Shown here piece by piece: positions 1 through 24,356 of a DNA stretch of 32,389 bases. Each line of letters opens with the position of its first letter. Position 1 is the first letter of the stretch. The position numbers and the translations under genes were made by a program. The stretch comes from Candidatus Huberarchaeum crystalense. Lineage in GTDB: Archaea; Huberarchaeota; Huberarchaeia; Huberarchaeales; Huberarchaeaceae. The stretch is from contig PFUW01000020.1 in assembly GCA_002790315.1 (NCBI GenBank), positions 1 to 32,389 on the forward strand, read 5' to 3'. The notes under the pieces are model-generated. The model was not told where the DNA came from and did not search any database. It saw only the letters and a list, made by a program, of their open reading frames with translations.

Positions 1-225
1 AGAAATGAGTATTGATCAAATAAGATTATTTTCTACGCTTAACCTTGGAGAAGTTTTAAAAAATGTAAACATTTAATAACTTTGAAGTTTAATTAATTAA
101 TGTTAATTAATTAATGTTGGTGGCAAGAAAAAACAGAGTCGGCAATACTCATTTTTCAATAACTTTGAAAGATGGGTATTAACATCTTTATTAAGTTTTC
201 CAAAAGGCGACCCCGAAGGCAGATT

Positions 226-315
226 GCGTATAACGGCTGCGGACATACGAAGTGCGAGGCGAAGCCAAGCATTTGGGCGGAGCGAAGCATAGCCGTATGT
301 CCGCTGTTGTCCGAG
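226..315 (-). mobile_element. Integron attC-like recombination site
   Basis: GC-rich imperfect palindrome in AT-rich DNA. On the - strand it reads TCGGACAAC (R'' side, 314-306) ... GTTATAC (R' side, 234-228). Perfect 11-bp inner stem GCGGACATACG (239-249)/CGTATGTCCGC (294-304). Loop contains GCGAAGC motifs. Lies ~80 bp downstream of the stop of the last cassette gene. Confidence 0.75.
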
Positions 316-393
316 TGCGTTAGCACCGAGCAATCCGAAGGATTGCGAGAGTTCCGAACCCCCTCATGATTTTTTTTCTACTGTTTTGAAACA

Positions 394-1567
394 TCAGAAC
401 CATTCCGTGATTTTTATTTCTTTTGGAAATAGAACTTTTTTAAGCTCTCCTCCTTTATACTCGCTAATCATTGGTTTTTTGGTTATATATTTTTCAATGC
501 TCATTTCTTTCAAAAAATATTCTGTTTGAACAACCAGCTCCTCATCAAGAAGTTTTGAGTTAAATAAAATATTACGTTTTGGAATCATAAGTAAATTACG
601 TGTTTTAGCATCATAACTTGAAGTGTCTACTTTCGAATAATAATACGTAGAGGCGTCAAACACTCTAGCTTTGTGTTTTCTCAATTCAACAAGCTCTTCT
701 TTACTCAAAGGAGTTCCTATAGGCCTAGGCGGTTCTCTGTTTACCCCAACCAAGTTCGATCCAATTATTGATGCTATAATATCAGATGATGGAGTTTTAT
801 CGCTTTTTGGGTTTGAAATTATTTCTCTCTTTATATTCGTAGAGAAGGTAATAATATCATCTAATCTCCCATTGCTATCAACCTCCCTGAGAAAAGCCCT
901 TATTCGCGCTATTTTTGGTTTGGTAACAGCAGCTCCCTCAAAGTCGAACCAGATATTAAGGAACTCCTTTTTGATGTATTCTTTTACCAACCGTTTAATA
1001 TCATCTATTCCAAACTTTAAAGATACTGGAACAAATACCGGTTTTTTGTTTTTATAATCAAGGAGATGATAAACTTCTCCCACAAATTTTAGATACTTAT
1101 CTATGGTTATGATTGGTAGTTTTTTCTTCGTTATTATATCATACCTCTCGATTTTTATATTTGGAATAAGTGCTATCGGTGCTGAGAATGTGTAGTAATA
1201 CTCAAAATAACCTGAAATTTTTTCAATGTGGTTAAATTCCGTATATGGATTAAACCTGAATGTTTGGGAAATAATATATGGGTATTTGTCCATCCATTCT
1301 TCAAAACCAAATAATTTCTTAATCTGTTTATCTTCTCTTTCAGATAATACACGGTTAATAGTGGCGATGTCTACTAATTTAGAATGTTCAAAAATAACTC
1401 TTGGAAAGTTTTTTCCTTCTTTGATAAAAAGTTCTTTTGTCAGGCTTTTTTGCGTCTATTGTTTTAATAGGTCTGTCTATGTCTAACGTTCCGATTCTGA
1501 ACCGCTTCACATTAAAGTCTGACTTTTTATCACTAATGCACTCTTTTATCTCTATATTTTTAACCAT
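394..1567 (-). pseudogene. Frameshifted ~390-aa TIM-barrel protein, tRNA-guanine transglycosylase (TGT)-like, divergent
   Basis: ATG at 1567 with SD GAGGTG, 1 nt after the PIN stop. This frame (MVKNIEIKEC...RFRIGTLDIDRPIKTIDAK) stops at 1390-1388. The frame of the 299-aa ORF is open from 1455. Removing one base of the A6 run (1446-1451) fuses them. The N-terminus and alternating beta/alpha pattern (KPVFVPV, IWFDFEG, IIGSNLVG, LFNSKLLDEE) loosely resemble the TGT fold. No DSGG motif or Zn-Cys seen. Confidence 0.55.
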
Positions 1568-1568
1568 A

Positions 1569-2114
1569 TCAACACCTCTTTATTTCCTCCATGATTTGAT
1601 CTACTATATCGCCTTTGACCCTAAATCTTGATTTCTTTATTAAGTTCAAGATAGATATTGCTTCATCTTTAGAAAAAATTTTGTATGTACAACAAGAAAG
1701 TTTCACGAAACCTATTGTCCCGGTAACCTTTGTTGAAATATGTGGAAAGTTTCTTAGCAAAAACTTTTTTGTTTCATTATCATCCAGTATCGTTATAAAT
1801 CTGATGTTGAAAAGATATAAAATGTATGAAATAACGATGACTTCATGTTCCCCTCTTTTTATCTCATCGAACGAGAATAATGGTCTGAGTATCTCACCGT
1901 AATTATAGTATACGAAAATTTGAATGCGTGCTCCCACTACTTTTTCTATCATAGGATAGTTAGATGAATTTATAATTTCTTTTTTTATCAGTGGCCCGCT
2001 AACAAATTTGAATGTTTCGTAACTCAACATTCGAATAAAATATTGAGGTTTGTTTATGTCATCTAAAAAACAAATATAAAAGCTACTATCTGGAACTATA
2101 GTAACTTCAACCAT
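1569..2114 (-). CDS. PIN-domain nuclease (DUF3368-like)
   Basis: PIN acidic motifs: IVPDSSFYI, IKKEI, RGEHEVI, ILDD, VTGTIG. Start overlaps the upstream stop. Confidence 0.8.
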   Translation of the reverse strand: MVEVTIVPDSSFYICFLDDINKPQYFIRMLSYETFKFVSGPLIKKEIINSSNYPMIEKVVGARIQIFVYYNYGEILRPLFSFDEIKRGEHEVIVISYILYLFNIRFITILDDNETKKFLLRNFPHISTKVTGTIGFVKLSCCTYKIFSKDEAISILNLIKKSRFRVKGDIVDQIMEEIKRC

Positions 2115-2667
2115 TATACTTCACTAACTCTTTATATCTTCCTTCGGTAATTATCCATTTTTCCAGCAATCTTCTTGCTATTTCTTCTCTTTTTTGTGGT
2201 AAGAGGAGCTCGTCCGAAATCCTTGATTTCTGTCTGTACTCTGGATAAGTTGTATATACCAAAAATAGAAGTTCTTCTTTGGATAATTTATCGTATAATT
2301 CCCTAATCATTTTCATCATACCAAGCATTTCTTTAAATTTTGGCTCATCTGAGTGATCTTTCACAAGATTATCATAGTCTTTTTTTCCTTTAGAAGTAAG
2401 CCAACTTTTACCTTCCCGATCACGCTGATAAGCGCCAATATGATATACGGGGTTATTTATTAGGTCAGCAGTATCTACTGAGTATGGCCCTTCATAATGT
2501 TTTTCAAAAACAATAAAATTTGCAATTTTTGGGTTGGCTTGAGAGAGAATAAAGAGCTCTTTTTGTAGATGCTCAAGCGAGGGGACAGGCCTATCTACCA
2601 CTCCTAAAAGCAATATGATATATCGCTCTATTACTTCAATCTCTGTTAGTTCTTCTTTTTCACTCAT
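2107..2667 (-). CDS. Panacea/SocA (DUF4065)/YwgA-like winged-helix protein, putative antitoxin
   Basis: Motifs HLQKELFIL, FEKHYEGPYS, WLTSKGK, LLFLVYTTYPEY. SD GGTGA upstream. Confidence 0.65.
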   Translation of the reverse strand: MSEKEELTEIEVIERYIILLLGVVDRPVPSLEHLQKELFILSQANPKIANFIVFEKHYEGPYSVDTADLINNPVYHIGAYQRDREGKSWLTSKGKKDYDNLVKDHSDEPKFKEMLGMMKMIRELYDKLSKEELLFLVYTTYPEYRQKSRISDELLLPQKREEIARRLLEKWIITEGRYKELVKYNG

Positions 2668-2688
2668 TTTTCATCACCTTCTATTACC

Positions 2689-2829
2689 TTAACCAAGAAT
2701 GGGATTTAATCTTCCCATTTTGTTCCTCTCATTACTTGTTACTCTGGAGATACGAACTTTAAAAACCTCTAATACACTTTTTCCGTCTGCGATTATTCTT
2801 ACTTTGTTGTCAACAAGATATGCATCCAT
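2689..2829 (-). CDS. Small (46 aa) ORF, possibly a damaged AbrB/DUF2080-like DNA-binding protein
   Basis: SD GGAGTG then ATG: MDAYLVDNKVRIIADGKSVLEVFKVRISRVTSNERNKMGRLNPILG*. An alternative frame LVKVIEGDEK* ends in ATGA overlapping the next start, suggesting an internal indel. Below the ORF-track cutoff. Confidence 0.4.
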   Translation of the reverse strand: MDAYLVDNKVRIIADGKSVLEVFKVRISRVTSNERNKMGRLNPILG

Positions 2830-2847
2830 ATCATTACACTCCTATAG

Positions 2848-2945
2848 CGGGGTTCGGAATTTCGGACAACTTCGGTATATCCGACATTAATGTCGTATAT
2901 TCATACATTTTAGGATTATATCCGAAACTTACGTCGCATATATCA
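2848..2945 (-). promoter_or_regulatory. Putative attI-like site
   Basis: Core GTTGTCC (2870-2864) preceded by two related imperfect palindromes about 41 bp apart (ATATCCGACATTAATGTCGTATAT at 2877-2900; TATATCCGAAACTTACGTCGCATATA at 2917-2942), directly 3' of the integrase relic. Confidence 0.5.
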
Positions 2946-2960
2946 CCCTCTGACAGACTG

Positions 2961-3113
2961 CTAATCTTCATCCCCTTCCACCTCCTTCATCATATCTGAT
3001 TTCTTCATTATTAAATCTAAAGGGCTTTTTATCTTACCCAAATCNNNNNNNNNNNNNNNNNNNNCATGTGTGTATATTTCCGTATTCTTTGAAATTGTGT
3101 GTTCAAGTAGATC
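2961..3113 (-). pseudogene. C-terminal relic of a tyrosine recombinase (integron-integrase/XerD-like)
   Basis: DLLEHTISKNTEIYTH[gap]DLGKIKSPLD matches the box II consensus LLGHxSxKTTEIYTHV...IKSPLD including the catalytic Tyr. Upstream sequence is not integrase-like. N-gap at 3045-3064. Confidence 0.75.
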
Positions 3114-3609
3114 TTTATTAATGATTTTTATTAGTTTCGTGCCTACAAACCTTAAGAAGTTTTTATTATAATACATATTTTATTTTATTATATTTGCTGT
3201 ATTTTTTGAATATTATTTCTTTTAGTAAAGATACTTAAAATCTCCTTGTTTTTTGCAGTTTTTCAGAATTAGTAAGCCACTTTTATTTTCAAAAAAAGTG
3301 CTAAAATCCCACAATCTACAAATAATTATTGCTGTTGCAAAATCATTAAATTTATAGTTCATTTGCCAACCATCCTTAGCTTTTTATTAATAAATATCTG
3401 GTTAATTGGGCTTTGTTCAGCCAGTTAAAAAATAAATTATAAGCATTCATATATCTAATTTGTTTGTGAAAACAAGTAATTACACACAAAACTAGGCGCG
3501 CGCTTTATTAAATTTATTGAAAAAATAAGTGTTAAAGTTAGTTAATAAAATATATCTAAAATAAATCATAGATAAAATTAAAATAGCCTGAATTTAGATT
3601 TGCTTTGAA

Positions 3610-24040: not shown

Positions 24041-24282
24041 TTTATAATTACTATTGTCATAATGTTAGATTGGTTTTGATTTAGTTAAACTACGAGCAAG
24101 TTTTTGCATGTTGTTTAATTGTTTGCTTTTTATATTAAAAAAATTTTCAAGCAGTATTNNNNNNNNNNNNCCGCACGCTGGCGTGCGATTTCAAAAATGC
24201 CTTTCAGATTGCGGAAAAATACCCTGCCGAGGCGCTTTGCGCCGAGGCAACATCTTTCAATTTCGCTAAAAGTACAAATTAG

Positions 24283-24356
24283 TGGGGTCGCCAGGATTTG
24301 AACCCAGATCGCCAGCTCCCTAAGCTGGTATGCTAGCCAAGTTACACTACAACCCC
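24283..24356 (-). tRNA. tRNA-Pro (AGG)
   Basis: GGGGTTG/CGACCCC-A acceptor; anticodon arm CCAGC-TTAGGGA-GCTGG with G37; CTGGG-TTCAAAT-CCTGG T-arm. Confidence 0.92.

Follow-up and report, generated by a model that had tools for sequence, protein, structure and literature searches.

Does one end of an archaeal scaffold carry an integron and, if so, which recombinase would serve it? This is the question raised by a stretch of 32,389 bases from Candidatus Huberarchaeum crystalense, referred to here as the window, which is an entire scaffold (C27) with nothing to its left in the assembly; the host genome amounts to 453 kb in 42 contigs, with 78% completeness and 31% GC. Integrons are the best-known natural gene-capture machines, and in Archaea they were reported only in 2022, almost always without a recognisable integrase. 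The original prediction, made from the letters of the window, was a degenerate integron consisting of an integrase relic, an attI-like site, a multi-gene cassette and an attC site. Our analysis makes it quite probable that the minus strand of window 1-3176 holds the end, nearest the integrase, of a gene-cassette platform of the integron type. Every feature of this integron end is on the minus strand, and the platform would run from a recombinase 3' tail through an attI site (two palindromic boxes and a GTT core), a 2,636-bp cassette carrying a three-gene module and a small open reading frame (ORF), and the attC site of that cassette to the first 233 nt of a second cassette. A search with the relic found one longer protein, P0075 (352 aa), which two metagenome contigs, L053 and L052, both encode exactly; it is the intact integrase used for comparison in the list below, in which R1 is the covariance model of the attC family.

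3084-3176, minus strand: diverged tyrosine-recombinase C-terminus stub (FLRF...KDLLEHTISKN), 11/17 residues identical to P0075 before the gap.
3045-3083, minus strand: 20-N scaffold gap and, at 3065-3083, 19 nt of the TEIYTH codons in which the alignment with L053 shows no difference from the intact integrase gene.
2961-3044, minus strand: final 27 integrase codons and stop codon (DLGKIKSPLDLIMKKSDMMKEVEGDED), 27/27 residues identical to P0075.
2871-2943, minus strand: attI arm, comprising palindromic boxes at about 2943-2917 and 2900-2876, a spacer and the 5 nt that precede the core; from the repeat and the same layout beside related integrases.
2862-2870, minus strand: attI core GTTGTCCGA, with the crossover between G (2870) and TT (2869-2868); from the divergence of L052 and the 9/9 complement of attC R''.
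2849-2859, minus strand: cassette 5'-end arm TTCCGAACCCC, partner of 362-352 once the cassette is circular, with 11 pairs formed across the junction.
234-2869, minus strand: cassette 1, 2,636 bp, from the TT of the attI core to the G of attC R'; from end complementarity and Logan contigs.
315-365, minus strand: attC 5' extension, with outer arm GGGGTTCGGAA (362-352) and two small hairpins, a module kept in a subset of the family.
226-314, minus strand: attC core, with R'' TCGGACAAC (314-306), L'' (304-294), a variable loop, L' (249-239) and R' GTTATAC (234-228); R1 score 82 bits, E about 1e-16.
1-233, minus strand: second cassette, first 233 nt (beginning TTATACGCAATC...), up to the scaffold end; from the R'/5'-end type GTTATACGC.

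The GC-rich element near the scaffold end has 58% GC in a genome of 31% GC and contains a perfect 11-bp stem, in which 294-304 pairs with 239-249. A homologous copy is present at the start of contig C22 of the same genome, and BLAST finds further copies, several per genome (E <=0.002), in five of 40 other archaeal genomes, which belong to different families. In an alignment of 12 of these sequences, an AAC near the 5' end and a GTT near the 3' end are invariant, compensatory changes occur in nine of the ten stem pairs, and the spacers are asymmetric, with 1 nt on the 5' side and 4-5 nt on the 3' side. The model R1, built from the 12 aligned copies, detects two sites in the genome itself, the one in the window and one at C22:130-213 (79.7 bits), and same-strand arrays in other genomes, such as eight sites spaced 679-1,593 nt apart in contig C15 of genome G004. 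The covarying stem and these arrays identify the element, which the original prediction had called an attC, as an attC-type site of an array-forming family, an imperfect hairpin of the form R''(..AAC)/L''/L'/R'(GTT..) conserved in structure. Further attC-like hairpins had also been expected nearby; there is no other on the scaffold, and the second site of the genome is the one on C22.

The cross-cassette complementarity of these sites was examined under one rule: with a crossover at G|TT, the bases after the G belong to the next cassette and should complement the R'' of that same cassette. In the window, the minus strand reads GTTGTCCGA (2870-2862), AA and TTCCGAACCCC (2859-2849), and the attC arm TCGGACAAC complements the core at 9/9 positions, as had been claimed. 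Both 9-mers are single-copy in the 453-kb genome: GTTGTCCGA occurs on the plus strand only at 306-314, which is attC R'' read on the minus strand, and TCGGACAAC only at 2862-2870. The second inverted match proposed for this cassette is equally real, with TTCCGAACCCC at 352-362, its complement at 2849-2859 and one more copy on contig C1. Over the family, the R' of a preceding site and the R'' of the next one are complementary at 8/9 positions or more in 5 of 13 adjacent pairs (three of them at 9/9), compared with 0 of 23 sites for a site's own R' and 8.3% of 436 unrelated pairs. When local complementarity was scored between the first 45 nt of a cassette and the 99 nt ending at its R'', 23 of 44 cassettes, a set that includes the window and one near-duplicate pair, exceeded the 95th percentile of 1,798 mismatched controls. 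Thus 2869-234 behaves as one multi-gene cassette whose 5' end complements its own R'', in the window at 9/9 positions with an 11-bp outer helix in addition.

Folding of the circularised cassette, which had been proposed as a check, gives the same picture. The circular junction, folded as DNA in silico, reaches -46.7 kcal/mol on the bottom strand and -41.0 kcal/mol on the top strand (z-scores -7.5 and -6.3 against 100 mononucleotide shuffles), so that the bottom strand folds better by 5.7 kcal/mol. In the integrated context the values are -30.2 and -26.2 kcal/mol, about 15-16 kcal/mol weaker than in the circle. Helices of 11 bp and 8 bp form across 234/2869, and all 19 junction pairs, including the 11 of the outer extension, are those foreseen by the original prediction. 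The 5' motif AAATTCCGAACCCCGC recurs at the cassette starts of other loci, and the 5'-end motif is found in L065, L068 and L120, which argues that the outer helix is a family feature of a long-form attC rather than a private coincidence. The R'/5'-end type GTTATACGC likewise occurs in the arrays of genomes G001, G004 and G038.

Between the recombinase tail and the cassette lie two 25-nt direct repeats (2876-2900 and 2917-2941), 80% alike and each internally palindromic. The two palindromic repeats and the core that had been described 3' of the relic are therefore present, at 2943-2876 and 2870-2862; the 9-mers of the core and of the hairpin arm had been recognised correctly, with coordinates one base off. 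A natural pair of contigs shows where the exchange takes place. L053 equals window 3044-1 with one mismatch (99.97%) and no gap, has the intact 352-aa integrase upstream and extends 32 nt beyond the cassette-side end of the window. L052 agrees with L053 in the integrase and in the 110 nt that follow its stop codon, and then reads GTTATATGA... where the window reads GTTGTCCGA..., remaining divergent from there onward. The two sequences agree up to and including ...CCGAAGTT and part at the base that follows, which fixes the crossover at G|TT, so that the insertion point is the G|TT of the site adjoining the integrase gene. This arrangement is not peculiar to one integrase: in 30 loci with downstream sequence, encoding integrases down to about 53% identity, the layout of stop codon, two palindromic boxes, spacer and GTT is conserved, and at least two boxes are detected downstream of the integrase in 18 of the 30, against 20 of 600 shuffles. 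The full layout occurs in a 100%-complete archaeal genome (G001, contig C32), which has integrase, boxes, GTT, a methylase cassette and two attCs. The attI-like site proposed beside the recombinase tail is thus a conserved companion of the integrase family. Downstream of its attI, L052 (2078-6152) carries GTTATATGA, a 74-aa ORF, a 764-aa ORF that looks methionine-synthase-like by eye and a 275-aa ORF; R1 finds no attC in these 4.1 kb, and L052 may have an attI that holds no cassette, or a cassette whose site is of a different type.

The recombinase relic that had been noticed (LLEH...TEIYTH...IKSPLD) is present as a minus-strand ORF at 2961-3176, ...FLRFVGTKLIKIINKDLLEHTISKNTEIYTH[X7]DLGKIKSPLD..., which reads across the 20 N at 3045-3064. 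With tblastn it matches a G001 recombinase (E 0.001), and it shares 38 of 51 residues with P0075; with X at the gap, it has no match in NCBIfam at E up to 10. Around the relatives of P0075, R1 gives 68 hits (E <=0.01, 80 loci), every one of them on the integrase strand, 63 downstream and 5 upstream of the integrase. An attC is found downstream in 29 of the 34 loci that have at least 2 kb of downstream DNA, and upstream in 3 of 22. This integrase-array linkage bears out the co-oriented layout of integrase followed by array that the original prediction had put forward. The recombinase adjoins attI as a tail and stub in the window and as an intact gene in L053 and L052, and the layout on C32 of G001 is the same. 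A co-oriented attC is also seen directly upstream of the integrase start codon at L112:7842-7933 and L122:3721-3813; the integrase gene may at times sit inside an array.

On these observations the platform would work in the following way. Recombination between the G|TT of the preceding site and that of a cassette's own attC would release the cassette as a circle. In the circle, the cassette 5' end (TTGTCCGA...TTCCGAACCCC) would pair with R'' and the outer arm and so complete a folded single-stranded attC hairpin, which the integrase, bound presumably to the attI boxes, would recombine with the double-stranded attI at G|TT, so that new cassettes would come to adjoin the integrase gene. In this scheme the strand choice, the chemistry and the expression are inferred; the architecture of the sites, the covariation across the family, the complementarity between cassettes, the pair of attI sites with different contents and the tie of the integrase family to co-oriented arrays are observed. 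Since only a stub is present here and no other tyrosine recombinase was found, the array of this archaeon would be movable only with an integrase supplied in trans.

Several findings weigh against reading the element as an integron, and they concern the integrase, the sites and the assembly in turn. P0075 contains the Pfam domains Phage_int_SAM_4 and Phage_integrase, with residues 1-69 unassigned. It passes the NCBIfam XerA model NF040815 with 233.5 bits (cut-off 220; profile positions 5-260 of 263), but fails the IntI model TIGR02249 with 217.6 bits against a cut-off of 265, the match consisting of two separate stretches, with model positions 169 to about 234 passed over. In the region of the IntI-specific domain, P0075 has 27 residues where Vibrio IntI4 (2a3v) has 69; the stub in the window does not extend to this region. 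The original prediction called the relic that of an integrase and named a grouping with non-integron recombinases as counting against itself; the nearest intact relative does group with XerA, and that part of the prediction is not supported. Against solved structures, P0075 scores 151.6 and 151.3 bits with the XerA structures 4a8e and 5hxy, aligned end to end, 147.4 bits with Vibrio IntI4 and 98.6 bits with XerD, and is thus nearly as close to IntI4 as to XerA and far closer than to XerD. Nevertheless, it is the P0075 family that is linked to the arrays, despite its grouping with XerA. The cognate integrase is therefore predicted from its sequence to be a XerA-like recombinase that carries an extra conserved N-terminal domain of about 65 aa and is devoid of the IntI-specific insertion.

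The motif ..FPYNP..I.KIKTI.G.KWHP..KYWS.P of the N-terminal domain is conserved across the integrase family, and the domain is modelled as a small beta-alpha domain with a predicted local distance difference test (pLDDT) score of about 85, the whole-integrase model reaching 80. An Atlas search with the N-terminal 66 residues gave scores of 0.82-0.84, which we take as a lead only. Nine ordinary XerA-like ORFs from another archaeal phylum (15 loci) differ from P0075 in showing neither the N-terminal domain nor a two-box site nor an R1 attC, within flanks of about 1.5 kb and with the motif judged by eye. TIGR02249 reaches its cut-off in none of the five genomes holding these attCs and in 0 of 371 genomes of the phylum of G004; at E up to 1e-48 it was found in 0 of 401 sampled archaeal genomes, in a search that had no positive control. 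P0075 also matches a 'site-specific integrase' on a plasmid of Chryseobacterium oryzae (NZ_CP094530.1) at 40% identity across residues 11-335, a stretch that takes in the N-terminal domain; the family may extend beyond Archaea.

As for the sites, the 11-bp stem, as read from its sequence, has no extrahelical or bulged base, and folds of the integrated element alone with RNA parameters are unremarkable (z -1.5 and -1.9). The scaffold, which ends 225 nt beyond the attC, holds a single one, short of a cluster of two attCs within 4 kb; in the available part of the archaeal integron survey, a call by IntegronFinder takes either two or more attCs inside 4 kb or the detection of intI with both profiles (PMC9668308). 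Some of the 80 integrase loci are near-duplicates (L088 and L089, for example), so that their counts overstate independence. Neither a circle junction nor a read pair was seen; the absence of 234/2869 joints from the contigs of four public sequencing runs is not evidence that circles are absent, as contigs drop rare forms.

The most serious alternative concerns the assembly. The scaffold could be chimeric, with 1-3044 coming from a more abundant genome or element that has an intact integrase, and with the archaeon itself holding only an old stub, so that the 'degenerate integron' would be an assembly product. The depth of coverage speaks for this: in the four runs, word depth is 142, 223, 72 and 200 on the cassette contig and 12.7, 26, 17 and 45 on the contig right of the gap, and the ratio between cassette and chromosome varies from 4.2 to 11.2. 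So does the abrupt change of identity to P0075 at the gap, from 27/27 to 11/17 residues, with only the 19 nt right of the gap still identical to the intact gene. Between the low-depth contig and the high-depth path of the integrase there is an overlap of about 30 nt, the size of a graph overlap, and the loose contig end at 3083 continues into the intact integrase gene. The same DNA stands behind an intact integrase in L053, and a 2.5-kb contig of another metagenome-assembled genome (MAG) has the same cassette at 99.9% identity. This contig, L032 (2,479 nt), belongs to a MAG titled Candidatus Altarchaeum and equals window 1-2259 with 2 mismatches, ending 2 nt past the window start; its positions 1-218 are unrelated to the window and look by eye like a transposase C-terminus, the break lying inside the 186-aa gene of the cassette.

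Logan contigs of the four runs span the gap with 9 letters omitted, giving a real gap of 11 nt instead of 20, and the low-depth right-hand contig extends 9-11 nt into it. Other observations count against a chimera. The relic-specific contig traverses the true 11-nt sequence, and the relic molecule does therefore continue into the integrase 3' end; the assembly, moreover, links the pieces across a gap of given size. Three positions of the window (2185, 2915 and 2953) carry letters other than those of the abundant variant, and at 2185 the window's letter persists in run X1 with about 5.9 of a depth of 148.4. Finally, the second attC of the genome has a chromosomal setting, lying 2.7-4.5 kb from L37ae, S27e and L44e. 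The join would thus be one of two cases, either recombination, within the TEIYTH codons, between a resident stub and integron DNA arriving from outside, or the joining of two genomes by a word that both contain. We regard the latter, and with it an origin of the degenerate integron in assembly, as doubtful though well within reach. Which of the two holds does not change the nature of the element. The claim that the locus has lost its integrase is accordingly left half standing: the window retains only a tail and stub, and a tblastn search of the 78%-complete genome yields no further tyrosine recombinase, but the intact integrase upstream in L053, the 4-11-fold depth and the switch of identity at the gap make the loss uncertain. 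Upstream of the stub there is no recombinase frame, all three frames being full of stops, and the DNA upstream of 3065-3083 is about 45% identical to the intact gene, with LL.H..SK kept through synonymous differences; the stub resembles a divergent homologue more than the remains of the same gene after decay.

To the right of the gap, the scaffold encodes L1, L10/P0 and SUI1, which, like the archaeal ribosomal protein genes near the C22 attC, speaks for a real copy in this archaeal genome. On C22 (L017) the attC stands at the contig start and is followed by two orphan ORFs, L37ae, GatC, S27e and L44e; this site may be the far end of the same array. One Logan contig per run covers 151-2897 in all four runs. 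The continuation of the array to the left, which the original prediction had proposed, would lie beyond the end of the scaffold in this assembly. Towards the scaffold end, word depth rises from the 72-223 of the cassette to 540-1,700 at window 151-300 and 900-3,300 at 1-150, and many contigs break at 90, 95, 109, 181-182, 223 and 253; window 1-300 could be a repeat, or a second cassette common to many arrays.

Two further explanations are very improbable. The GC-rich element might be a structured non-coding RNA gene whose pairing with 2862-2870 is regulatory or due to chance, as its base composition, its conserved covarying stem and the position of the second copy upstream of a gene on C22 would allow. 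However, Rfam has no family anywhere in 1-3300, either at gathering scores or at E up to 10, the sites sit at cassette ends in same-strand arrays, their flanks follow the rule of cross-cassette complementarity, they accompany one recombinase family, and L052 and L053 differ exactly at the GTT. Nor is it at all credible that the 9- and 11-nt inverted matches are transposon terminal inverted repeats or the ends of a recombinase-inverted segment: the repeats are collinear around 2.5 kb beside a recombinase gene tail, but the segment holds no transposase, the left repeat is embedded in the attC of a large family, related loci are tandem direct arrays with all 68 sites on one strand, and an inverted segment is absent from the contigs of the four runs, which drop rare forms. 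A tRNA or split tRNA was also considered, and ARAGORN finds none near the element. The same program reports a tRNA-Pro with anticodon AGG at window 24282-24356 and a tRNA-Ser with a 124-nt intron at C14:4951-5150.

The cassette itself is tightly packed with co-oriented ORFs of 46, 186 and 181 aa and a pair of 59 and 299 aa.

2689-2829, minus strand: 46-aa ORF, first in the cassette, no family match in profile searches.
2107-2667, minus strand: 186-aa protein with a weak resemblance, by PADLOC, to PDC-M19A and to DarG in its C-terminal, non-macro part.
1569-2114, minus strand: 181-aa protein, probably PIN-like (DUF3368 family) from annotations of homologues.
394-1567, minus strand: gene of about 390 aa with a predicted tRNA-guanine transglycosylase (TGT) fold, TGT/DpdA-like, split by a frameshift into 59 and 299 aa; from the frameshift and a structural model.

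Pfam and NCBIfam searches with eight ORF pieces gave nothing meaningful, and PHROGs gave one weak match. The 186-aa protein has no Pfam hit; in PADLOC it matches PDC-M19A (E 6.6e-7) and DarG profile positions 170-302 of 329 (E 3.8e-5). For the 181-aa protein, precomputed annotation places PF11848 in 17 of 45 homologues, some of which are named 'predicted nucleic acid-binding protein'; a Pfam search with the protein of the window gave no hit at E up to 1. The product of 394-1567 has clearly a TGT-type fold in its model (pLDDT 93; Foldseek E 5.6e-8): comparison with TGTs gives Z scores of 19.6 (1iq8, root-mean-square deviation 4.3, 316 residues aligned), 19.3 and 18.3 at a sequence identity of 5-12%, compared with 13.7 for DpdA, 13.8 for Cap10 and at most 11.9 for generic barrels. 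The family comprises 74 homologues, mostly of about 390 aa and none with a Pfam domain, and the sources named include MAGs of Asgard, Archaeoglobales, Thermococcus and Nanoarchaeota. The frameshift is one extra A in the A run 1446-1451 and is the same in all copies seen (L053, L032 and Logan contigs); an intact 390-aa variant, P0002, exists, and the gene may be a population-wide pseudogene or contain a slippage site. The three cargo genes are kept together in L033 at 68% DNA identity, where the module is flanked by a large methylase-type ORF and a 763-aa ORF that is Argonaute-like by eye only. Judged by these similarities, the cargo is likely a defence or toxin-antitoxin-like module, and the three genes (TGT-fold, PIN-like and DarG-C-like), standing elsewhere beside restriction and Argonaute-like genes, form a candidate defence system.

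How far does this element resemble known systems? With the classical bacterial integrons, such as class 1 and the Vibrio arrays, it shares the R''/L''/L'/R' attC hairpin with AAC...GTT, the crossover at G|TT, the use of attI as the place of insertion, repeated binding sites for the integrase in attI, and complementarity between the 5' end of a cassette and its own R''. Unlike them, it has an integrase gene that reads in the direction of the cassettes and carries attI at its 3' end, an integrase without the IntI insertion and with an extra N-terminal domain, many attCs with an added 5' module and outer helix, and a cassette of three to four genes in 2.6 kb. In spirochaete integrons of the Treponema type, integrase and cassettes are co-oriented, as here, and the integrases are canonical IntI with the specific domain. 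Archaeal XerA/dif dimer resolution offers other parallels, since P0075 passes the XerA model and aligns with XerA structures over its whole length, and the attI boxes are short palindromes like recombinase core sites. In Xer-exploiting integrative elements such as CTX phage, as would be the case here, a Xer-type recombinase acts on a folded hairpin site of single-stranded DNA and a double-stranded site on the chromosome. CTX-type elements, however, are single and lie at dif; they are not tandem arrays of promoterless cassettes with hairpin sites of their own.

The closest relatives are the archaeal integrons and the clusters of attC sites lacking an integron integrase (CALINs) described in 2022. 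The available part of that report gives 75 archaeal MAGs with integrons, six IntIs and 539 attCs, mostly in integrase-less clusters, places the archaeal attI immediately downstream of intI, and mentions spirochaete integrons of reversed orientation (Ghaly et al. 2022, Sci Adv, PMC9668308). As described there, the likeness to the window extends to attC arrays in archaeal MAGs, including DPANN-group phyla, to an attI directly 3' of the integrase with the canonical insertion point, and to arrays that mostly come without a detected integrase and carry cargo rich in toxin-antitoxin and restriction or defence genes (PMC9668308). The difference, as far as that part of the report goes, is that its six IntIs are defined by the IntI-specific domain, which the integrase linked to the present attC family does not have (PMC9668308). 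So judged, the window is at least another archaeal integron of the kind reported there, and it varies from that kind in having an attC family tied to a XerA-like integrase that lacks the IntI domain, a conserved attI of two boxes and an attC of the long form. Our literature search found no paper linking a XerA-like integrase to attC and only a review without that link, and the supplementary figures of the 2022 paper may bear on it.

In summary, the element would work like an integron, having the sites and the cassette of one, whereas its integrase, as predicted, lacks the defining IntI feature. We raise tentatively, at somewhat less than even confidence, the wider proposal that many archaeal CALINs are complete integron-like elements with a XerA-derived integrase that has the N-terminal domain instead of the IntI insertion and would for this reason not be called by standard integron finders. 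They would form a lineage with its own two-box attI and long-form attCs, maybe sister or ancestral to the bacterial integrons, and the window would record a recent exchange of attI and cassette, inside the integrase tail, between an abundant genome and a small archaeon. Through this locus and its relatives, a single attC family and a conserved attI are tied to a recombinase family that does not pass the test by which integron integrases are defined. If this recombinase is active, it would broaden the definition of an integron integrase and expose a blind spot of current detection tools, it would provide a simple Xer-like enzyme for studying the recombination of folded single-stranded sites, and it would explain what services the cassette arrays of Archaea.

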